From: a virus
Taxonomy: Duplodnaviria; Caudoviricetes
Strand: one strand, 5' to 3'
Virus record (IMG/VR): IMGVR_UViG_3300018073_000003
Coordinates: 1-43,920 of that record
DNA: 43,920 bases
How positions within the stretch are numbered: position 1 is the stretch's first letter; every line of letters starts with the position of its first letter. The translations under genes were made by a program, and so were the position numbers. Positions 1 through 43,920 of the stretch are shown piece by piece. The notes under the pieces are model-generated. The model worked only from the letters and a program-made list of their open reading frames with translations. It made no database searches and was not told the DNA's origin.

Positions 1-123
1 AATCGAGAGCCCGCGCTTGCCCTCGATGAAGCGGCGCCGCAGCGCGTGGCCCGGCGGGTAGGCCGATTCGAGCGAGCGGATGTAGAGGTCGCCGAGGTTG
101 TGGCGGTTGTCGTAGACCGACGT
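1..123. repeat. 123-bp direct terminal repeat (copy 1); circular assembly overlap
   Basis: 1-123 (aatcgagagc...gaccgacgt) is identical to 43798-43920; the TerL reading frame continues across it. Confidence 0.97.
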
Positions 124-711
124 GCGCAGGTAGAGGTGGCCCGCGTGCGTGTTGCTGACCGGGAACTCGCGGCTGAGCCAGTGCGTCTCGCCGGGCGGGT
201 TGGGCGTCAGTAGCACTTGATGCGGGAAGCCCGCCTGCGACAGCCGCGCGGGCACGTAGGCGCGGTAGACGTCCTCGGGCACCTCCTCGGTCTGGTCGAT
301 GCCCAGCACCGCCAGCGTGAGCCCGCTGAGCTTGGCGAAGCGCGACGTCTCCTCGCTGCTCTTGAGCGCCCGCAGATAGACGCGGGAGCCCTTGCCGACG
401 ACCTCGTCATACTCCTCGTCGCCGTGCCACCGCAGCGGCACGCCGTTTTGCTGGCACCAGTCGCGCCAGCGCGGCTTCAGCTGGGCGTCGAGCCCGTCCT
501 GCGTCCACCGCGTCAGCGCGCAGTGGATGCCCGGGTAGTCGATGCAGTAGCCCAACACCTTGGCCACCAGCGGCGTGGTCTTGCCCGCCCGCACGGCGCC
601 TTCGAGGTCGACGTAGGGGAACGCCTCCGCGTCGGCGCGCATGAAGCGCGTCTGCACGGCGTTCCAGTGGTGCCGCACGACGCGGCGGCCGTGCTCGATG
701 GTGACGGGCAC
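1..711 (-). CDS. terL: Terminase large subunit, N-terminal ATPase part (continues across the junction to 42997; ~503 aa in total)
   Basis: Manual translation from GTG 711 (RBS GAGGG): Walker A EGAVRAGKTT, Walker B-like VLGIDQTEE, motif III LLTPNPP; in frame with ORF 42997..43785. Missing from the ORF track because it runs off the window edge. Confidence 0.9.
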   Translation of the reverse strand, partial: MPVTIEHGRRVVRHHWNAVQTRFMRADAEAFPYVDLEGAVRAGKTTPLVAKVLGYCIDYPGIHCALTRWTQDGLDAQLKPRWRDWCQQNGVPLRWHGDEEYDEVVGKGSRVYLRALKSSEETSRFAKLSGLTLAVLGIDQTEEVPEDVYRAYVPARLSQAGFPHQVLLTPNPPGETHWLSREFPVSNTHAGHLYLRTSVYDNRHNLGDLYIRSLESAYPPGHALRRRFIEGKRGLSI

Positions 712-34866: not shown

Positions 34867-35304
34867 CTACTTCGGTTCGGCCGTTCCGTCGTCGACCGGC
34901 ACCAGCACCCAGCCGTAGTAGGGGCTGTACTTCAACTCAAACTTCCGGTCGGGATCGACGGGCACGCCGGGCGTCCCGGGAAGCACGATGGGCAGGCTGA
35001 TGTGCGGCGGCGGCCCGGGTGGCAGCGTGTTGTCGGGCGTCACCGGCGGAAACACCGGCCCCTGCGTCGGGTAGTGCGGACCCCCGGGCAGGCTGTTGTC
35101 GGGACGGTGCGGCCATGTCGGACGGCCGTAGCCCGGGTCCACCGGAGGGCGCACACCGAACCCCGGGTCGACGCCTCCTCCGAAGCCCGGCGGCGTCGGC
35201 AGCGGGTAGCCGGGCGTCAGCGGCGGCTGCGGCAGGCTGTTGTCGATGCCGGGGCCCTCGCCGGGTCCGTCGAGAAAGATGATGAACGCGAGACGCTGCT
35301 TCAT
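34867..35304 (-). CDS. Proline-rich DNSLP-repeat protein
   Basis: IDNSLP, PDNSLP, PDNTLP and VDPG[FY]G repeats; C-terminal KYSPYYGWVLV; RBS AAGGAG. Confidence 0.75.
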   Translation of the reverse strand: MKQRLAFIIFLDGPGEGPGIDNSLPQPPLTPGYPLPTPPGFGGGVDPGFGVRPPVDPGYGRPTWPHRPDNSLPGGPHYPTQGPVFPPVTPDNTLPPGPPPHISLPIVLPGTPGVPVDPDRKFELKYSPYYGWVLVPVDDGTAEPK

Positions 35305-35320
35305 GGTGGCTCTGACTCCT

Positions 35321-35641
35321 TCAGCTGGCGACGACATGCACCGTCACGGTGCCGCCGGTCACCGGCGTGGTGATCCTAGCGCGGATGGCCTTGAGCGCGA
35401 CGGGCCCGATGCTGGTCGCGACCACGCCGTTGGCGACGACCGTGGTGGCCGCGCCGATGGCCGCCCACGCGCCGGTGTAGTCCTTGCTGTGCGACTGCTC
35501 CAGCTGCACGGCACCCGCGCTGACGGCGCCGTTGCCGATGACGTAGGCCGTCACCACGCGCACGCCGTTCAGTTCGACCGCTTCGCCGTTGCCGCTGGTC
35601 GCCGTCTTCTGCAGCGGCTTGTCGAGGTAGTTGGCGAACAT
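35321..35641 (-). CDS. Small beta-rich virion protein
   Basis: 106 aa; GAVQLEQS.....W..I...IRARIT. Confidence 0.7.
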   Translation of the reverse strand: MFANYLDKPLQKTATSGNGEAVELNGVRVVTAYVIGNGAVSAGAVQLEQSHSKDYTGAWAAIGAATTVVANGVVATSIGPVALKAIRARITTPVTGGTVTVHVVAS

Positions 35642-35648
35642 CGCGGCC

Positions 35649-36056
35649 TCAGTGCGCCCCGATGCCGACGCAGGTGACGGTGACGATGCCCGCGTTGCCG
35701 ACGGTCACCAGATACTTGCCGGTCTGGCTCTGCGGCACGATCATCGTGCCCGCAAGGATGACGTTGGCCCCGGCCAGCAGCGTGACCGCGAACGCGCCAG
35801 CGCTGGTGTTGCGCAGGTATAGCTCGTAGTAGTTGCCGACCACCGGCGCGCGGCCGCTGACCGTCATGCCGTCGATGATCTGCGCGGCCGTGGGCGTGGT
35901 GTCGGAGCGCGCGGCCCCGGCGCAGTCGCGGATGATCATCCCGCTGGCAAACTGCGCGGGCGTGTAGGTGACGGGCCCGGCCGTGCCGACGGTCACGGGG
36001 CTGAGAAAGTCCATGAACTTGCGGCCGACGACGGCCAGCGCGTTGAAGTGAGACAC
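35649..36056 (-). CDS. Capsid decoration-like protein
   Basis: 135 aa; T.AQ..SG.I...AAR.DTTPTAAQI pattern; immediately after the MCP. Confidence 0.65.
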   Translation of the reverse strand: MSHFNALAVVGRKFMDFLSPVTVGTAGPVTYTPAQFASGMIIRDCAGAARSDTTPTAAQIIDGMTVSGRAPVVGNYYELYLRNTSAGAFAVTLLAGANVILAGTMIVPQSQTGKYLVTVGNAGIVTVTCVGIGAH

Positions 36057-36139: not shown

Positions 36140-37057
36140 TTACGCGCCTGCCGTGCCGTAGGTGTTCTGCCAGAGGAACGCATCCCACGCCTGCCGGAAC
36201 CGCACCTTGTAGATGCGATTGCCGGTGCGGGGATCCTGCATGGCAGGCGCGGCGGTGATGCCGAGACGGTCGACGCAGACCAGCCCGTGCGTCTCCTTCG
36301 CGGAGGCGACGAGGAACCATGCGTCGGTGTCGGTGAGGTGCGGGTTGACCACGATGCGGATGTTGCGCCGCTTCTTGATCGGGTTCAGATCGTTGTCGGC
36401 GACGCCCGGCAGCTGCGTGCTGTTGACGATGCGCTCGGCCAGCATCTCCAGATGCGGGGGCACGTAGAGGATCCACGACGTCACCGGCGCGACCAACTGG
36501 CCGCTCTCCAGCCGCGTGTCGGTCTGCACGTCGATCATCGCTTGATTGAGCGAGTCGAAGCTCAGATCGGCGTCGGTCGCCGGGCGGTTGCGCGCGGTGC
36601 CGCCACCGGCGAGCGCGTGCGCGACGTTGAACAGCGACACGCCGTCGGGCGTGGTCTGCGTGGTGAAGCCGTTGTTGAACGGCCGCGCCGCATACTTCTC
36701 CTGCACGACGCGCGAACTGAACGCCAGCCACGCCGCCTGCCGCTGCAGCACGTCGTACTGGTCGTCTTCCAGCGCCGTCTCGGTGACCTCGAAGCCCAGT
36801 CCGAACTCGACCGGCGTGATGTCCTTGCTGTAGCCCGGCCGGATGAGGTCGAAGGCGTAGACCGTGCCTTCGGGCTTTTCCGGCACGTCCCCAAACGGGG
36901 TGACGGTCTGGAACCGCTCGAACTTGCGGCTGCTGCTCTTGCGGCTGTAGACCTCGGGCCAGATGGCCGGAAGCTCCTTCAGCTGCTTGCCCAGCAGCGC
37001 GTAGACGGTCTTGTCGACGTTGTCGTAGAGGGCAGCAAATGTTCCGCGAACCTGCAT
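36140..37057 (-). CDS. Major capsid protein (HK97 fold, Mu gpT-like)
   Basis: KPEG..FD..FGLGFEVTETALEDDQY..DGVSLF...H..LYVPPHLE..A.RI..S..N.I..VVNPHLTDTDAWFL. Confidence 0.9.
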   Translation of the reverse strand: MQVRGTFAALYDNVDKTVYALLGKQLKELPAIWPEVYSRKSSSRKFERFQTVTPFGDVPEKPEGTVYAFDLIRPGYSKDITPVEFGLGFEVTETALEDDQYDVLQRQAAWLAFSSRVVQEKYAARPFNNGFTTQTTPDGVSLFNVAHALAGGGTARNRPATDADLSFDSLNQAMIDVQTDTRLESGQLVAPVTSWILYVPPHLEMLAERIVNSTQLPGVADNDLNPIKKRRNIRIVVNPHLTDTDAWFLVASAKETHGLVCVDRLGITAAPAMQDPRTGNRIYKVRFRQAWDAFLWQNTYGTAGA

Positions 37058-38419: not shown

Positions 38420-39340
38420 CTACTCCAGTCGGTTCGGCGCGCCCGGCACAAAGCGCGACAGTGACGAGTCGATGTCCGCGTCCTTCAGTCCGCTCTCGCG
38501 CAGGCGCACGCGGAAGGGCTCGTCGAGCACCGGCGCCTGCCCGCGCGGACGGCCGCCAGCGGGCTCTTGATAGATGGGCGGCCGCAGCGCGCGACGTCCC
38601 TGCGGCTGCGGCGTGCCGTAGGGCTGTGGCTGCTGCTGCGGCGCGCCACCGGCGCCGAAGGTCTGCAGGCCCAGCGCCGTCATCAGCACGGTCTGCTGCA
38701 CCTCGGGGTTGCCCAGCTGGTCAATCGGCAGCGTGCGCATCCCGCGCTCGACCATGTCGGCGTCGATGCCGTAGTGCGTGGCCACCGCCTTGACGTGCGC
38801 GATGGTCTGCTCGGCGCGCTGCTGCTTGAGCGGCAGCAGTTCGGTCTGGTGCAGCTGCTGCACGGCGCGCTGCACCTGCGCCTGCACGCGGCGGTCTTCG
38901 CGCGCCATGATGCGGGCGGCAGCGGCGAGGTCGGGCTGGCCCTTCTCATCGTAGAGCCCGAGGTCGAGCGCCGTGGCCTCCTGCTCCTGCTGCAGCGCCA
39001 ACTGGTCCGCAGCGCTGGGGGCATCGCTGGCAGGCGCGCCGGTGGCCGCACGCTGCAGCATGGCGAGCCCTTCGGGCGACTCCATCACTGAGCGCAGCAG
39101 GTCTTGCGCGGCGGCGGCCTGCGTCTCGGCCTGCTGGCGGCGCTCGCGCTCGCGCACCAAGTCGCCGACCACGCTGCGGCGGCCCTGCGGGGGCTCGATG
39201 GCGTCGGGGTCGTCTTCGCCGTCGGGCGGTGGCGGCGGGTCTTCGTCGGGAATCGGCGGCAGCGCCTCGGGTTCCGGCGCCGCGCCGGTGGGCATCCCTT
39301 GCGGGGCGTCACCGGCGGGTTCGAGCACTACGTCAGTCAT
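38420..39340 (-). CDS. Capsid scaffolding protein
   Basis: Acidic P/D/E N-terminus, LVRERERRQQAE coiled coil; between portal and MCP. Confidence 0.7.
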   Translation of the reverse strand: MTDVVLEPAGDAPQGMPTGAAPEPEALPPIPDEDPPPPPDGEDDPDAIEPPQGRRSVVGDLVRERERRQQAETQAAAAQDLLRSVMESPEGLAMLQRAATGAPASDAPSAADQLALQQEQEATALDLGLYDEKGQPDLAAAARIMAREDRRVQAQVQRAVQQLHQTELLPLKQQRAEQTIAHVKAVATHYGIDADMVERGMRTLPIDQLGNPEVQQTVLMTALGLQTFGAGGAPQQQPQPYGTPQPQGRRALRPPIYQEPAGGRPRGQAPVLDEPFRVRLRESGLKDADIDSSLSRFVPGAPNRLE

Positions 39341-39605
39341 TGGTCCTCTCAATCACCGCGTCGATGTCCTGCGCCCGCAGGAGCAGACACGGCCAGTCGT
39401 CGATGCGCACCTCTTCGCCGACGTCGCTGCCAAACACCACATGGTCGTGCAGCGTGACCTCGGTGACGGCCGCGCCGGTGAGCAGCACCAGCCCACGGCG
39501 GTCGACCATGATCGATGGTGCGGGCAGCGTCACCAGCCCCGTGGCAGTGGTCAGCCGATCACGGGGCGGCAGCGCCACCAGCACCAAGTCGGGCCGCAGA
39601 ATCAT
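39333..39605 (-). CDS. groES: GroES/Cpn10-like co-chaperonin
   Basis: LRPDLVLV..TTATGLVTLP..RGLVLLTG..VTEV..HDHVVF...GEEV.ID...LLLRAQDIDAVIE follows the Cpn10 pattern end to end. Confidence 0.75.
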   Translation of the reverse strand: MILRPDLVLVALPPRDRLTTATGLVTLPAPSIMVDRRGLVLLTGAAVTEVTLHDHVVFGSDVGEEVRIDDWPCLLLRAQDIDAVIERTND

Positions 39606-39943
39606 CGGGTCAGTTCCACGTCGGGCCCGAGGCCGGGCGTGCCGCGTGGCGTCTCGGTGCCCTTGGCGGCGGCCGCTCGGTATTGCTTGGCCAGCGACGC
39701 CGGAAGGTCCACCAGCTGCTGCGCGGCGCGGCGCCCGGCAATCAACTCGGCCGTGTCCACCGCGATGCGGTCGGCGCTGACCTGCGTGCTGCAGACGTTC
39801 GCGATGCGGTCGACGGTGACCGCCGCGCCGAACATCTTCTGCGCCATCGCGACCACGGCGTGCCAGCCGCGATGGGTCTGCAAGTCGTCGAGCACGTCGG
39901 CCAGTTCGCGCAGTTCGTCGGTCGTGGTCGGCGTCAGCATCAC
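39602..39943 (-). CDS. Small portal-adjacent protein
   Basis: LDDLQTHRGWHAV motif typical of the gene following podovirus portals. Confidence 0.65.
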   Translation of the reverse strand: MMLTPTTTDELRELADVLDDLQTHRGWHAVVAMAQKMFGAAVTVDRIANVCSTQVSADRIAVDTAELIAGRRAAQQLVDLPASLAKQYRAAAAKGTETPRGTPGLGPDVELTR

Positions 39944-42258
39944 ATGATGCCTGCGCCTGCAGGCTCGGGCGGCTGCGCGGTCACTTCAGCGGGCGGCGGC
40001 CCGGGCGACGAGCCCGGCGGTGGTCCCGGGGGCGGCGGGCCCTGCGCGCCTTGCGGCGGGCCGCCGGGTGGCGGTGGTCCCCCGGGCCCAGCGGGGCCTG
40101 CCTGCGGCCCACCCGGCGGCATCCCGGGCGGCGCCGGGGGTGCCATCGCCGCCATCTGCTTCTGCTGCGCGTCCTGCACTTGCCACGTCCGCATCGCACG
40201 CATGAACTGGCTGCGGTTGGGCACGTCGAACAACCGCAGCGCCTGCTCGAACAGCGGCACCAGCACGTCGGGGCTGCTCAGCGTCTGCTGCAGCCCGGGG
40301 TTCATCTGCGCGAACCCGCCAATGACCGCCATGAAGCCGTTGAAGTTGCCGCGCTGCTTGTTGCGGTCGGCGCTCTCGACGCTGCCGCGCGGCTTGCCGT
40401 GGAACTGCCCGGCCAGCACGCCGCTGGTGATGCCGCCTTCGGGCAGGTCGATGCCGCGCGCCGCAAGGTCCATGATGAAGCGCGTGCTGGGCTCCATCGG
40501 CGCCTCGTCGGCGGCGCGGCGCCACAGTTCGTGCCGACACTTGAAGAGGTTCTCCAGCGTCTCCTGCATGTTGCGGATCGACTCTTCAATCCGCACGAAG
40601 CTCTGCTCGGTCACCATCTGCACTTCGCCCAGCGTGCGGCTGGCGTCGGGCGTGGCGCCGAGGCTGACGTCGTTGAGCCCCGAGAGGCGCTCGCCCGCTT
40701 GGATGATGGAGCCCTCGCGGCTCATCATCGAATTGGGCACGTCGGGCAGCTGCATCGGCGCGACGTCGTTGGGGTCGTTGACCGTGATGATGGCGCCCGG
40801 GCCCCACGGCTCCTCGTCGGGATCCCAGCTGGAACTGGCCAGCCGCTTGAGCGGCGCGTTATTGACGAAGTTGCTGCGGTCAGCAATCGCGTTGCGCACG
40901 CCCGCGTGCTCTTCGCCCAGACTCGCCAGCTTCTCGACGTGGCTGCGGCCGTAGACGCTCAGCGGGTTCGGGTAGGGCCGGAAGAGGTGGTAGCGCGGCA
41001 TCCCGAGGTCGTCGAGCTTGCAGCGCAGGATGACGCGGTGCACGGCGCTGAAGGTCACGATGTACCACTCGTCGATGCCGTCATCGTCGAGGTCGGCGAC
41101 CATCTGCAATTCCCACAGTTCCTTTTCGATGGTGCGCCGGTGGTCCTGCGTCGCAATCTGCTGGCCGGTCATCGCCACCGGCGACGGCAGCGGCGACGCC
41201 TCGCGGTCACTCACCTGCGCCAACTGCGCGACCGCGTCCTTGTCGTAGACGTGCTCGCCGACGCGCTGCTCCAGTTCGGTGAGCCGCCGCCAGAACCGCT
41301 TGGCGTAGCCCCACACTTCGGAGTCGTCCTGCGCGTGGCCGGGCAGGATGAGGAAGTCGCGCAGGCTCACGACGCGGTAGTTGGGCCCGCGCCGCACCGG
41401 CACGATCTCGTCGACCACCGCGTCCATCCCGCCCTGCTCGTCGGGGTTGTCGACGTCGAGGAACTGGCCGCGCGGGTCCAGCGCAGGCAACGGCTGCGCA
41501 TCGGGCGACAGCCGCAGCGCGCCGAACGGGTTGCGCTCGGGCTGCAGGCTGCGCACCTTGCGCTGCTTGCGCAGGTCGGTGCGCTCGGCACACTCCAGCA
41601 CGCCGGTGCCTTCAATCAGCGCGAGGTCGAACACGCGCTGGAGCCACGACTGCAGGCGCTCGTCTTCGACCTTCCACTGGTGGAACTCCTCGACCATCGG
41701 CGCACGCTCGGCGGCCTTGCCCCAGCCCTCGACGGTCCACACCGGCTCGACAAAGATGGTCTTGACGAAGCGCGACCGCATCGCGTCGATCTTCTCGGTG
41801 ATGAGCCACGTCGACAGATCGGCGGCGCCCGGGAAGGGCGCGTCTTTCACGTTGCGCTTGCCCTGCGCGTAGAGCCAGTGCCAGTAGTCGAGGTCGCCGC
41901 CGGGGTCGATGATGCTGCTGCGCGCGGCGACGGCGCGGGTGATCTCGTCGTGCAGGAAGTGCACCAGCGCGTCTTGCTGGCCGGGCTTGAACTTGACGTC
42001 AAACGCCGTCTCGCGCGCGCGCTGCAGTTCGGGGTTCTCGCCTGCGGGCGGGCCTAGCTCGGTGGGCTCGGGCGGCATCTCCAGCGGCGGCAACGCGCCG
42101 TCGGCCATGCCCTCGTCTTCGTCCTCGATCACACCGGCACCGGGCCCGATGGGCGCACCCGCGCCGGGCGGCAGCGGCTGCATCGGCGGGGGCATCCCCG
42201 TCGGCGGCATCGGTAGCGGGGGCCCCGGTGGTAGCGGGGGCCCCGGTGGGTAGGTCAC
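39940..42258 (-). CDS. Portal protein
   Basis: 772 aa; PFPGAADL, ALIEGTGVL, YGRSHVE.L, RTLGEVQ motifs; P/G-rich termini; downstream of terL. Confidence 0.85.
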   Translation of the reverse strand: MTYPPGPPLPPGPPLPMPPTGMPPPMQPLPPGAGAPIGPGAGVIEDEDEGMADGALPPLEMPPEPTELGPPAGENPELQRARETAFDVKFKPGQQDALVHFLHDEITRAVAARSSIIDPGGDLDYWHWLYAQGKRNVKDAPFPGAADLSTWLITEKIDAMRSRFVKTIFVEPVWTVEGWGKAAERAPMVEEFHQWKVEDERLQSWLQRVFDLALIEGTGVLECAERTDLRKQRKVRSLQPERNPFGALRLSPDAQPLPALDPRGQFLDVDNPDEQGGMDAVVDEIVPVRRGPNYRVVSLRDFLILPGHAQDDSEVWGYAKRFWRRLTELEQRVGEHVYDKDAVAQLAQVSDREASPLPSPVAMTGQQIATQDHRRTIEKELWELQMVADLDDDGIDEWYIVTFSAVHRVILRCKLDDLGMPRYHLFRPYPNPLSVYGRSHVEKLASLGEEHAGVRNAIADRSNFVNNAPLKRLASSSWDPDEEPWGPGAIITVNDPNDVAPMQLPDVPNSMMSREGSIIQAGERLSGLNDVSLGATPDASRTLGEVQMVTEQSFVRIEESIRNMQETLENLFKCRHELWRRAADEAPMEPSTRFIMDLAARGIDLPEGGITSGVLAGQFHGKPRGSVESADRNKQRGNFNGFMAVIGGFAQMNPGLQQTLSSPDVLVPLFEQALRLFDVPNRSQFMRAMRTWQVQDAQQKQMAAMAPPAPPGMPPGGPQAGPAGPGGPPPPGGPPQGAQGPPPPGPPPGSSPGPPPAEVTAQPPEPAGAGIM

Positions 42259-42581
42259 TTCTTGGCTGCCTGCTTGTCAGCGTCAGCCTTCGCGTCCTTG
42301 TCGGCCTGCGCGGCGTCGGCCTTGGCCTTGGCCTCGGCGTCCTTCTCAGCCTTCTCGCGGGCGACCTTGGCCTCGACCTCGCTGTCGAGCACACGCTTGG
42401 CGGCGTCGAGATCGAGCTTGCCTTCGTGGTCGCGCAGGCCGAGACGGTCGGCCAACTCGGCGAGGTTCTCGCGCTCGTCCTTCTCGTCTCGGGTGTCCTT
42501 GCCGTTCTTCGCGGGGGCGGTGGTCATGGTTCGGCTCCGGTCTTGGGTGTATAGCTCGGGGAACGTGCCGCGTGTTTGCAT
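42255..42581 (-). CDS. 108-aa protein with an MCP-like N-terminus, a scaffold-like motif and a K/A/D tail
   Basis: MQTRGTFPELY vs MCP MQVRGTFAALY; LGLRDHEGKLDLDAAKRV vs scaffold LGLYDEKGQPDLAAAARI. Confidence 0.75.
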   Translation of the reverse strand: MQTRGTFPELYTQDRSRTMTTAPAKNGKDTRDEKDERENLAELADRLGLRDHEGKLDLDAAKRVLDSEVEAKVAREKAEKDAEAKAKADAAQADKDAKADADKQAAKK

Positions 42582-42584
42582 GGC

Positions 42585-42806
42585 TCAATGACTGTGCGCG
42601 CCCCCGGCGTCGGGCGGCAAGAGTGTAACGCAAACCTCGACCAGCAGCAGGCCGTGCTCGATGGTCTGACTGCCCAGCGCGGCCAACGGACTGACGTGCC
42701 AGTGGTCGACGTGGATGCGCAGCGTCTCCAGCGTCGGCCACAGCGTGAAGGCGACGTCAGCGACGTGGGCGGTCACGGCCTCGTCGACCGACAGCGGCGC
42801 GGTCAT
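42585..42806 (-). CDS. Hypothetical protein (start uncertain)
   Basis: Open frame fills the gap; first in-frame ATG downstream of the 42902 stop is MTAPLSVDEAV. Confidence 0.35.
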   Translation of the reverse strand: MTAPLSVDEAVTAHVADVAFTLWPTLETLRIHVDHWHVSPLAALGSQTIEHGLLLVEVCVTLLPPDAGGAHSH

Positions 42807-42901: not shown

Positions 42902-43000
42902 CTACCGTCGGCGTCGCGCCCGCGCGGCCAGCACGTTGAGCAAGACCACAATCACCAATCCCACCGCCCCGCAGCCCAGCACGATCAGCAGGTCGGTCAT
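42902..43000 (-). CDS. 32-aa single-pass membrane peptide
   Basis: MTDLLIVLGCGAVGLVIVVLLNVLAARARRRR; ATGA-coupled to the terL stop. Confidence 0.55.
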   Translation of the reverse strand: MTDLLIVLGCGAVGLVIVVLLNVLAARARRRR

Positions 43001-43920
43001 GTGCGGAGTCCACGCGCGGGCCCTCCCCAGCGCGTGCGGAGGCCGCGCTTGACGTCCATCGGGTCGGTGTCGCGCTGCGCTTTCGCAATCGCCTTGCGCT
43101 CGGCCTTGGCGTGGTCGACCCGCGTCGGCTGCGCCGGGCCATAGCCTAGCACCATGTATTCGAGGCAGTTCATCGCGTGGTCGTAGTAGCCGTCTTTGCG
43201 CGGGCGCCGCGTGTTGGGCGAGGTCGTGGTCGTGTAGACGCGCTCGTCCCACACGTAGCCCGCTTCGAGCGCATCGACAAAGTGGGTCGACGGCACCGGG
43301 CCATCGTCGCGCAGCAGCAGCCAGCGGTCGGCATCGACCAGAAACGCCGGGCCCATCTTCGTCAGCCTGCGCTGGTAGCCCGCGACGTGCTGAATCGCGC
43401 GGTCGCGGGCGTCGGGGTGGTTGGCGCCTGCGATGGTCCACAGTGCCACGCCGTGCTCGCGCAGCACGTCGGCCGCGCTAACCTGCGTGCCCTGCGAATT
43501 GTTCTGGTCACCCGCCGGGTCGCCGGTCGACATCACCTCGGAGGGCCAGCTGTCGCCCTCGAACCACTGCGCGCGGATGCCCAGCACGCCGGGCGCGAAG
43601 TCTTCGATGAACTGGTCCACGCCCAGCACGCCGCCGAGGATGACCAGCTGGCCCCACGGCATCAGCTGGCCCCAGACCACGCTGGGGTGCTTGTGGCCGA
43701 AGTCCCACGCCTCCAGCAGCGCGACGTCGGGGTTGAGCCGCGTCGGGCCGACGTGCAGCGCACTGTTCCATGTGGAACCATACACGGGCGTGCCGACAAT
43801 CGAGAGCCCGCGCTTGCCCTCGATGAAGCGGCGCCGCAGCGCGTGGCCCGGCGGGTAGGCCGATTCGAGCGAGCGGATGTAGAGGTCGCCGAGGTTGTGG
43901 CGGTTGTCGTAGACCGACGT
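42997..43920 (-). CDS. terL: Terminase large subunit, C-terminal RNase H-like nuclease part
   Basis: AWDFGHKHPS, GDPAG, YDHAMNCLEY; frame open to the window end and continuous with 1-711. Confidence 0.9.
   Translation of the reverse strand, partial: TSVYDNRHNLGDLYIRSLESAYPPGHALRRRFIEGKRGLSIVGTPVYGSTWNSALHVGPTRLNPDVALLEAWDFGHKHPSVVWGQLMPWGQLVILGGVLGVDQFIEDFAPGVLGIRAQWFEGDSWPSEVMSTGDPAGDQNNSQGTQVSAADVLREHGVALWTIAGANHPDARDRAIQHVAGYQRRLTKMGPAFLVDADRWLLLRDDGPVPSTHFVDALEAGYVWDERVYTTTTSPNTRRPRKDGYYDHAMNCLEYMVLGYGPAQPTRVDHAKAERKAIAKAQRDTDPMDVKRGLRTRWGGPARGLRT
43798..43920. repeat. 123-bp direct terminal repeat (copy 2)
   Basis: Identical to 1-123. Confidence 0.97.

Follow-up and report, generated by a model that had tools for sequence, protein, structure and literature searches.

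The window, meaning the whole stretch of DNA analysed here, is a 43,920-base virus record with a GC content of 70%. The metagenome runs in which the stretch occurs are labelled as freshwater sediment and soil, and no RNA dataset is among the listed runs. The head operon lies on the minus strand and runs from terminase through small ORFs, portal, a 113-aa ORF, a GroES-like ORF, a 306-aa ORF, and 206-aa and 156-aa ORFs to the capsid gene. The genes on which the argument turns are the following:

42997..43920, minus strand (continuing at window positions 1-711): 3' part of the putative large terminase gene (window 1-711 matches phrog_979, E 5.4e-4; upstream of portal in relatives)
42255..42581, minus strand: small pre-portal ORF, long form of 108 aa, with a GC of 0.87 at third and 0.42 at second codon positions
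39940..42258, minus strand: portal protein, starting at GTG 42258 or ATG 42210 (PF23899, E 2.1e-22; phrog_1216, E 1.1e-15)
38420..39340, minus strand: 306-aa putative scaffolding protein, assigned from its gene position and build; the motif shared with the small ORF lies at 38906-38974
36140..37057, minus strand: major capsid protein, HK97 fold, Mu gpT-like (PF25209, E 2.8e-16; PF10124, E 8.1e-7)
37025-37057, minus strand: capsid N-terminus, source of the copied residues by its match to the small pre-portal ORF

Support for the small pre-portal ORF comes from a comparison of contigs of four runs with the window DNA: an X4 contig reproduces 42248-42631 with no differences, and X8 contigs reproduce 42200-42700 in two pieces with one difference. 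The start of the portal gene is uncertain because an 18-nt tandem duplication (42212-42250, minus strand) lies between the stop of the small ORF and ATG 42210. The proposed overlap of the small-ORF stop with the portal start thus exists if the portal begins at GTG 42258 and is lost if it begins at ATG 42210. Searches for solved structures similar in sequence to the window capsid or portal found none. The GroES-like gene of the operon (39333-39605, minus strand; PF00166, E 4e-4) is annotated in cultured relatives too. After the capsid gene lies a Pro/Gly-rich 156-aa ORF with PVDPG repeats (34867-35337, minus strand) and no PHROG match, and similar ORFs are found between terminase and portal in L008, L011, L014 and L018. 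In the same interval, several relatives encode a secreted-looking protein that ends in VPEP, a hydrophobic stretch and basic residues (L005:3752-4414, L008:3096-3839, L011:1918-2673, L014:3282-4040, L021:3618-4301). We take these proteins to be PEP-CTERM-like, and they may hint at the host group or be cargo for the host surface.

The initial annotation had placed a 108-aa protein at 42581-42255 on the minus strand and proposed that it mimics both the capsid N-terminus and a scaffold motif. The ORF has the sequence quoted there, and it gives no Pfam or PHROG match at E<=0.1. Its parts are:

42549..42581, minus strand: codons 1-11, copy of capsid residues 1-11, identified by profile score and codon comparison
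42378..42470, minus strand: scaffold-like motif, residues 38-68, identified by hhalign and HMM
42258..42374, minus strand: C-terminal stretch rich in Ala, Lys, Asp and Glu, with KK at its end; it differs from homolog to homolog

The beginning of the small ORF (MQTRGTFPELY) and that of the capsid (MQVRGTFAALY) are, as had been noted, identical at 8 of 11 residues, and different codons are used at five of these eight. A position-specific scoring matrix (PSSM) of 10 columns, built solely from 120 capsid N-termini, was run over 87,776 six-frame window positions. Residues 2-11 of the small ORF ranked first with 39.6 bits (E about 8e-9); the window's own capsid came second with 36.2 bits, and the third-ranked position reached 5.4 bits. 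With P8 and E9, the small ORF has the residues most often seen in capsids at these positions and is thereby nearer to the capsid-family consensus than the window capsid itself. Over codons 1-11, small ORF and capsid agree at 9, 9 and 3 of 11 first, second and third codon positions, respectively. The low third-position agreement excludes a DNA-level repeat, and the capsid likeness is therefore maintained at the protein level.

The second resemblance is to the 306-aa protein encoded between portal and capsid, which has an acidic low-complexity N-terminus and a conserved C-terminal end. It has no Pfam or PHROG match, and its nearest named Atlas cluster, "scaffolding protein" (score 0.91, with PF09306 in 13% of members), is a lead only. 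From position and build, we infer that it is the likely scaffold. Residues 43-65 of the small ORF are identical to residues 123-145 of the putative scaffold at 11 of 23 positions. Aligned as profiles with hhalign, 11 long forms of the small protein and 25 putative scaffolds match over residues 38-68 and 118-148 (E 2.9e-6), and the scaffold motif is conserved across the 25 homologs, the most divergent of which have 21% identity. When 677 window ORFs were searched with an HMM built from this scaffold segment, the small ORF (E 2e-5) was the sole one besides the scaffold at E under 0.01, and the next best stood at 0.046. Among 17,713 ORFs of related loci, the scaffold-segment HMM matched, to E 0.6, scaffold-like ORFs of 282-472 codons (scaffold homologs by appearance, part of them checked individually) and five long forms; the long forms of L082 and L085 gave no match at E 1. 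The capsid match lies far beyond chance, the scaffold-like match is significant, and both resemblances, to the capsid N-terminus and to the putative scaffold, are real. The C-terminal K/A/D stretch, put forward as a helix, is charge-neutral (11 K+R vs 10 D+E in 39 aa) and not conserved among homologs, and the whole protein is neutral as well (24 K+R vs 26 D+E). The gene directly after the capsid (35649-36056, minus strand) matches phrog_673 "head scaffolding protein" (E 3.6e-17). In DSL-LC04, the position after the capsid is held by an annotated cement gene, which suggests a cement protein instead.

Whether translation starts at 42581 or at 42527 had been left to be decided, and probably both starts are used. 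The elements around them are:

42585..42587, minus strand: stop codon that closes the preceding frame, separated from start 1 by 3 nt
42535..42538, minus strand: Shine-Dalgarno-like GGAG inside the ORF, located 7 nt upstream of start 2 and identified by pairing energy
42255..42527, minus strand: predicted short product of 90 aa that lacks the capsid copy; in long forms the second ATG or GTG falls at codon 19-21 (GTG in L082 and L087)

Predicted pairing to the 16S tail is +0.7 kcal/mol at start 1 (42581), -5.8 at start 2 (42527) and -7.1 at the capsid gene. The same contrast holds among the other long forms: start 2 pairs with -6.1 to -7.2 kcal/mol in all seven, and start 1 with +0.5 to -3.2 in six and -6.1 in L088. 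The conserved Arg-Ser ahead of the second Met is the ribosome-binding site of start 2. Start 1 has no such site in the window, but an upstream stop lies 2-6 nt before it in seven of eight long forms despite differing upstream genes, and likely lets ribosomes re-initiate there. Pairwise among the eight long forms, codons 2-11 show 84 synonymous vs 28 amino-acid-changing differences. We predict two products, a scarce 108-aa form made by re-initiation and a commoner 90-aa form made from 42527.

Relatives of the gene were sought directly and by locus. A direct homolog search returned four homologs among 525 candidates, and two early candidates, L002 and L003, were chance matches inside another protein. 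From 66 portal loci, three with under 450 nt upstream were set aside, and of the remaining 63, 61 carry the capsid-arm motif within 1 kb of the portal, in 42 distinct peptides. In 60 of the 61, an ATG or GTG lies one or two codons ahead of the motif. On the opposite strand, the capsid-arm pattern has no match in 772,147 nt. These counts are to be read with the pattern tuned on the same peptides and the loci partly redundant; the capsid-only PSSM picks the same peptides as top matches, L111 excepted. L110 and L113 are the two loci that lack an upstream motif, and in the L113 genome the gene instead lies some 1 kb ahead of the capsid gene. The location varies further, with the gene again about 1 kb before the capsid gene in L151 and after it in L169. 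Five loci have no capsid gene within their fragments, and L152 was left out as a relative since its capsid and small protein are identical to those of the window.

Most members are very small. Short forms account for 54 of the 61 loci and consist of a capsid-arm copy and a Lys/Pro/Arg tail, with a median length of 27 aa and a median of 47% K/R in the tail (35 distinct peptides); in many, the likeness to the capsid runs on as far as capsid residue 16. Seven loci have long forms, which include the scaffold-like motif, and the portals of all seven are at least 72% identical to that of the window. When 1.84 billion representatives were searched with a profile, 115 matches resulted, made up of P0002, 110 further family members and four unrelated repeat proteins. 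The scaffold-like motif is absent from all 109 new members scored by pattern, 48 of which had been called with a false upstream extension or lie behind an internal Met/Val. Viral contigs were also scanned twice with DNA patterns, which yielded 7 and 33 matches; of five new contigs checked, four hold family members beside terminase or portal, and one, L235, is a false match that contains a stop. Bacterial and archaeal species genomes gave no exact pattern match. The simplest reading is that the scaffold-like motif would have been gained later, since on the capsid tree, read as unrooted, long forms sit among short-form lineages. Homologs keep both motifs, contrary to the refuting observation named in the initial annotation: of 11 aligned long forms, 10 open with the capsid copy, and the scaffold-like motif is present in every one. 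The description as a dual mimic is nevertheless apt for a small clade of closest relatives and not as a general trait, because the conserved, widespread unit is the capsid-arm copy with a basic tail. Two variants of the plan were also seen: the long forms of L082:7289-7966, L085:7187-7960 and L087:5903-6559 reach 219-258 aa through Asp/Arg/Gly-rich low-complexity tails, and P0139, a 68-aa call, contains two tandem capsid-arm copies, each with a basic tail.

Covariation with the capsid had been proposed as a check in the initial annotation. Of 31 genome pairs, 29 could be used, two being dropped because the script missed the capsid. The peptide residue at position 7 equals the capsid residue in 23 of the 29 pairs. 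Where the capsid replaces F7 by N (five genomes) or W (one), the peptide carries the identical residue in five of six. Discordance is seen in L128 and L113, and five peptides deviate while the capsid keeps F, three of them with C and a doubtful one (L196) with T. The covariation is thus suggestive and not significant, because it comes down to just two independent pairs (sign test p 0.5).

A wider comparison, stronger in kind than that of position 7, shows the design in some more distant phages. All ATG, GTG and TTG starts in the available parts of eight gpT-like phages were scored, each against its own capsid N-terminus. The top match was gp63 in CRP-901 (score 30, next 22, among 1438 starts), an unannotated ORF in CRP-902 (33, next 15, 544 starts) and, weakly, gp50 in HTVC023P (27, next 24, 837 starts). 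The three peptides are 44-46 aa long with 35-41% K/R; that of the Roseobacter phage CRP-902 (L274:2215-2349) is 44 aa long and identical to CRP-901 gp63. Scored against each other's capsid, the window and the CRP phages reach 11-12, vs 30-35 against their own. The available parts of the other five phages hold no copy, and 11 loci of another capsid subfamily hold no capsid-arm copy. In T4, gp61.1 and residues 57-93 of gp23 are identical at 17 of 37 positions (E 6e-9). Judged by these comparisons, the predicted peptides of CRP-901, CRP-902, weakly HTVC023P, and T4 gp61.1 are of the same design, each matched to its own capsid. The copies of CRP-901, HTVC023P and T4 are encoded away from the portal. 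No virion proteome of CRP-901 or HTVC023P was found in the literature, and the main text of a marine phage proteomics paper covers neither.

We tentatively favor, at somewhat less than an even chance, that the product docks at the portal vertex, in those capsid sites that would otherwise receive the N-arms of a pentamer. The portal takes the place of this pentamer, which should leave five arm sites empty, and they would be filled most simply by a free copy of the arm made together with the portal; in several viruses, dedicated proteins fill gaps at the portal vertex. In the capsid model (mean pLDDT 87.6; fold matches to phage capsids and encapsulins), residues 1-12 score under 50 and are unstructured in the monomer, while across 128 capsids conservation reaches 90% or more at Q2, R4, G5, L10 and D12. 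An arm unstructured in the model yet conserved fits one that folds on neighboring subunits. In T4, the available text describes an N-fist that contacts four subunits, two of them in the adjacent capsomer (PMC9958956), and N-fists that are disordered in the five portal-facing subunits (PMC7136217); the N-arm of P-SSP7 is described as similarly disordered (10.64898/2026.08.19.745834). Against a filler, the passages available from the T4 portal-vertex literature, PMC7136217 among it, mention no extra peptide. The idea that the portal vertices of T4 or P-SCSP1u hold extra capsid fragments likewise found no support in the literature passages covered. Further points against a filler are that the gene is not always beside the portal, that in the window a ribosome-binding site is lacking at start 1 and that PHROGs gives the scaffold label to another gene (35652-36056).

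The mechanism could proceed as follows. The pre-portal peptide would be made in few copies along with the portal, and its capsid-arm copy would occupy the vacant N-arm sites at the portal vertex. In most relatives, the basic tail might then contact packaged DNA. In the window clade, the scaffold-like motif would stand in place of the basic tail and might tie the peptide to the scaffold at procapsid initiation; the role of this motif is the weakest step of the mechanism. The scarce 108-aa form, which would arise by re-initiation at 42581, would combine both motifs, and the commoner 90-aa form, begun at 42527 behind the GGAG, would have the scaffold-like motif only. A more general statement is possible but rather doubtful: distant HK97-fold phages (the soil/sediment lineage, marine Roseobacter and Pelagibacter phages, and T4) might keep hidden micro-genes that give a spare capsid N-arm, completing the portal vertex and nucleating the head, with the window clade having a two-start adaptor that links a capsid-arm copy with a scaffold copy, the ratio of the two being set by initiation.

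Alternatively, the capsid copy might be a general anchoring or encapsidation tag that occupies many sites in the lumen, where the basic tail neutralises or tethers DNA and the long form carries a domain of its own into the head, with phiX174 protein J as a model for a DNA-neutralising peptide of the lumen. The high K/R content of the short-form tails, the differing C-terminal parts behind the same tag and the flexible gene location would all suit such a role, as would a weak match of T4 gp61.1 residues 1-27 to an internal virion protein family (E 0.31) and the precedent of the T4 targeting sequence in the available text of PMC3012670. However, the window protein is charge-neutral, the ordinary arm sites of the mature shell are presumably filled by the capsid's own arm, and the weak first start suggests few copies, so that we consider a general tag unlikely.

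The product could also be a soluble regulator or decoy that competes with capsid arms, and in the clade with scaffold contacts, to time or limit assembly, to block a competing phage or to absorb a host capsid sensor. Exact interface mimicry suits a competitor, and the 90-aa form, which is likely abundant and has the scaffold-like motif alone, would suit a scaffold modulator. Genes for counter-defence usually have a patchy distribution. In contrast, this gene is retained almost universally, and in a set position among the head genes, although the portals share no more than 36-79% identity, which is the pattern of a core assembly gene and makes a regulator or decoy distinctly improbable. Least probable is that the window clade makes only the 90-aa protein from 42527 and that the capsid-like codons are a remnant of an ancestral micro-gene, for which speak the good ribosome-binding site of start 2, lacking at start 1, and the calling of P0003 from the second start, but against which stand the mostly synonymous variation of codons 2-11 with 8 of 10 residues invariant in eight long forms, a frame kept open and in phase though codons 12-20 vary in number, and the closely placed upstream stop in seven of the eight.

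The portal-vertex reading bears on a standing question in phage assembly: one portal enters a five-fold vertex, and something has to satisfy the capsid contacts of the missing pentamer. A 27-residue gene that annotation pipelines miss, present at nearly all related loci examined and mirrored in the cultured phages CRP-901, CRP-902, HTVC023P and T4, might make one answer directly testable. In existing maps, such a peptide could pass for the capsid's own arm. A rule for missed head genes follows as well, namely to scan each genome with its own capsid N-terminus.

Among known proteins, T4 gp61.1 (AAD42508.1, 54 aa, hypothetical, phrog_1823) copies the N-terminal segment of the mature capsid protein and continues into a Lys run. 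The window ORF, too, is small and copies the N-terminal segment of the capsid from its own genome; the basic tail behind the copy is absent in the neutral window protein and present in short-form relatives. In contrast to the window family, gp61.1 lies among replication genes, has no scaffold-like motif and copies the gp23 segment that is exposed after proteolysis, and the two have no sequence homology. The window ORF and two short forms have no PHROG match, and hence none to phrog_1823 or phrog_2086. The PDB contains no gp61.1 chain, and among the papers found, none gives a function for it.

Dedicated portal-vertex proteins are known from crAss001 (gp57, PVA), HFTV1 (gp21, PIP) and P74-26 (PVP) (PMC10172136, 10.1101/2024.12.09.627619, PMC12407722). 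As described in the available text, they are likewise small proteins in sites left where the portal replaces a pentamer, and the N-arm of P74-26 PVP joins the capsid sheet while its Lys2 touches DNA (PMC12407722). However, they are folded and, in the same text, not described as sequence copies of the capsid N-terminus. PDB sequences searched with a profile of the 11 long forms gave one unrelated match (E 0.15) and no homology to a solved portal-vertex protein. The T4 internal proteins, which according to the available text enter the head via their targeting sequence (PMC3012670), share with the window family a conserved short N-terminal tag on varied small proteins, but their tag targets the scaffolding core, whereas the window-family tag copies the capsid protein itself.

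T4 gene 21/21' resembles the window gene in that internal initiation yields a shorter product (annotation); the two forms predicted for the window would differ by a binding motif, and the use of both starts is itself a prediction. The DNA-binding protein J of phiX174 is a very small basic peptide of the capsid lumen with a short capsid-binding end. The short forms, with their median of 27 aa, are similarly tiny and strongly basic, unlike the 108-aa neutral window protein; phiX174 is a ssDNA microvirus with a jelly-roll capsid, and J is no copy of the coat protein's own arm. A gene that copies the capsid N-arm was found described nowhere in the full-text literature covered; subscription papers lie mostly outside this scope, and supplements could bear on small virion proteins. 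The earlier statement that no described equivalent is known thus agrees with the literature covered, although a similar design exists in the uncharacterised T4 gp61.1. Taken together, what appears to be new is an unnamed micro-gene family, near-universal in its lineage and probably a type of small head accessory protein, of which the dual-motif form with two predicted starts is specific to the window clade.
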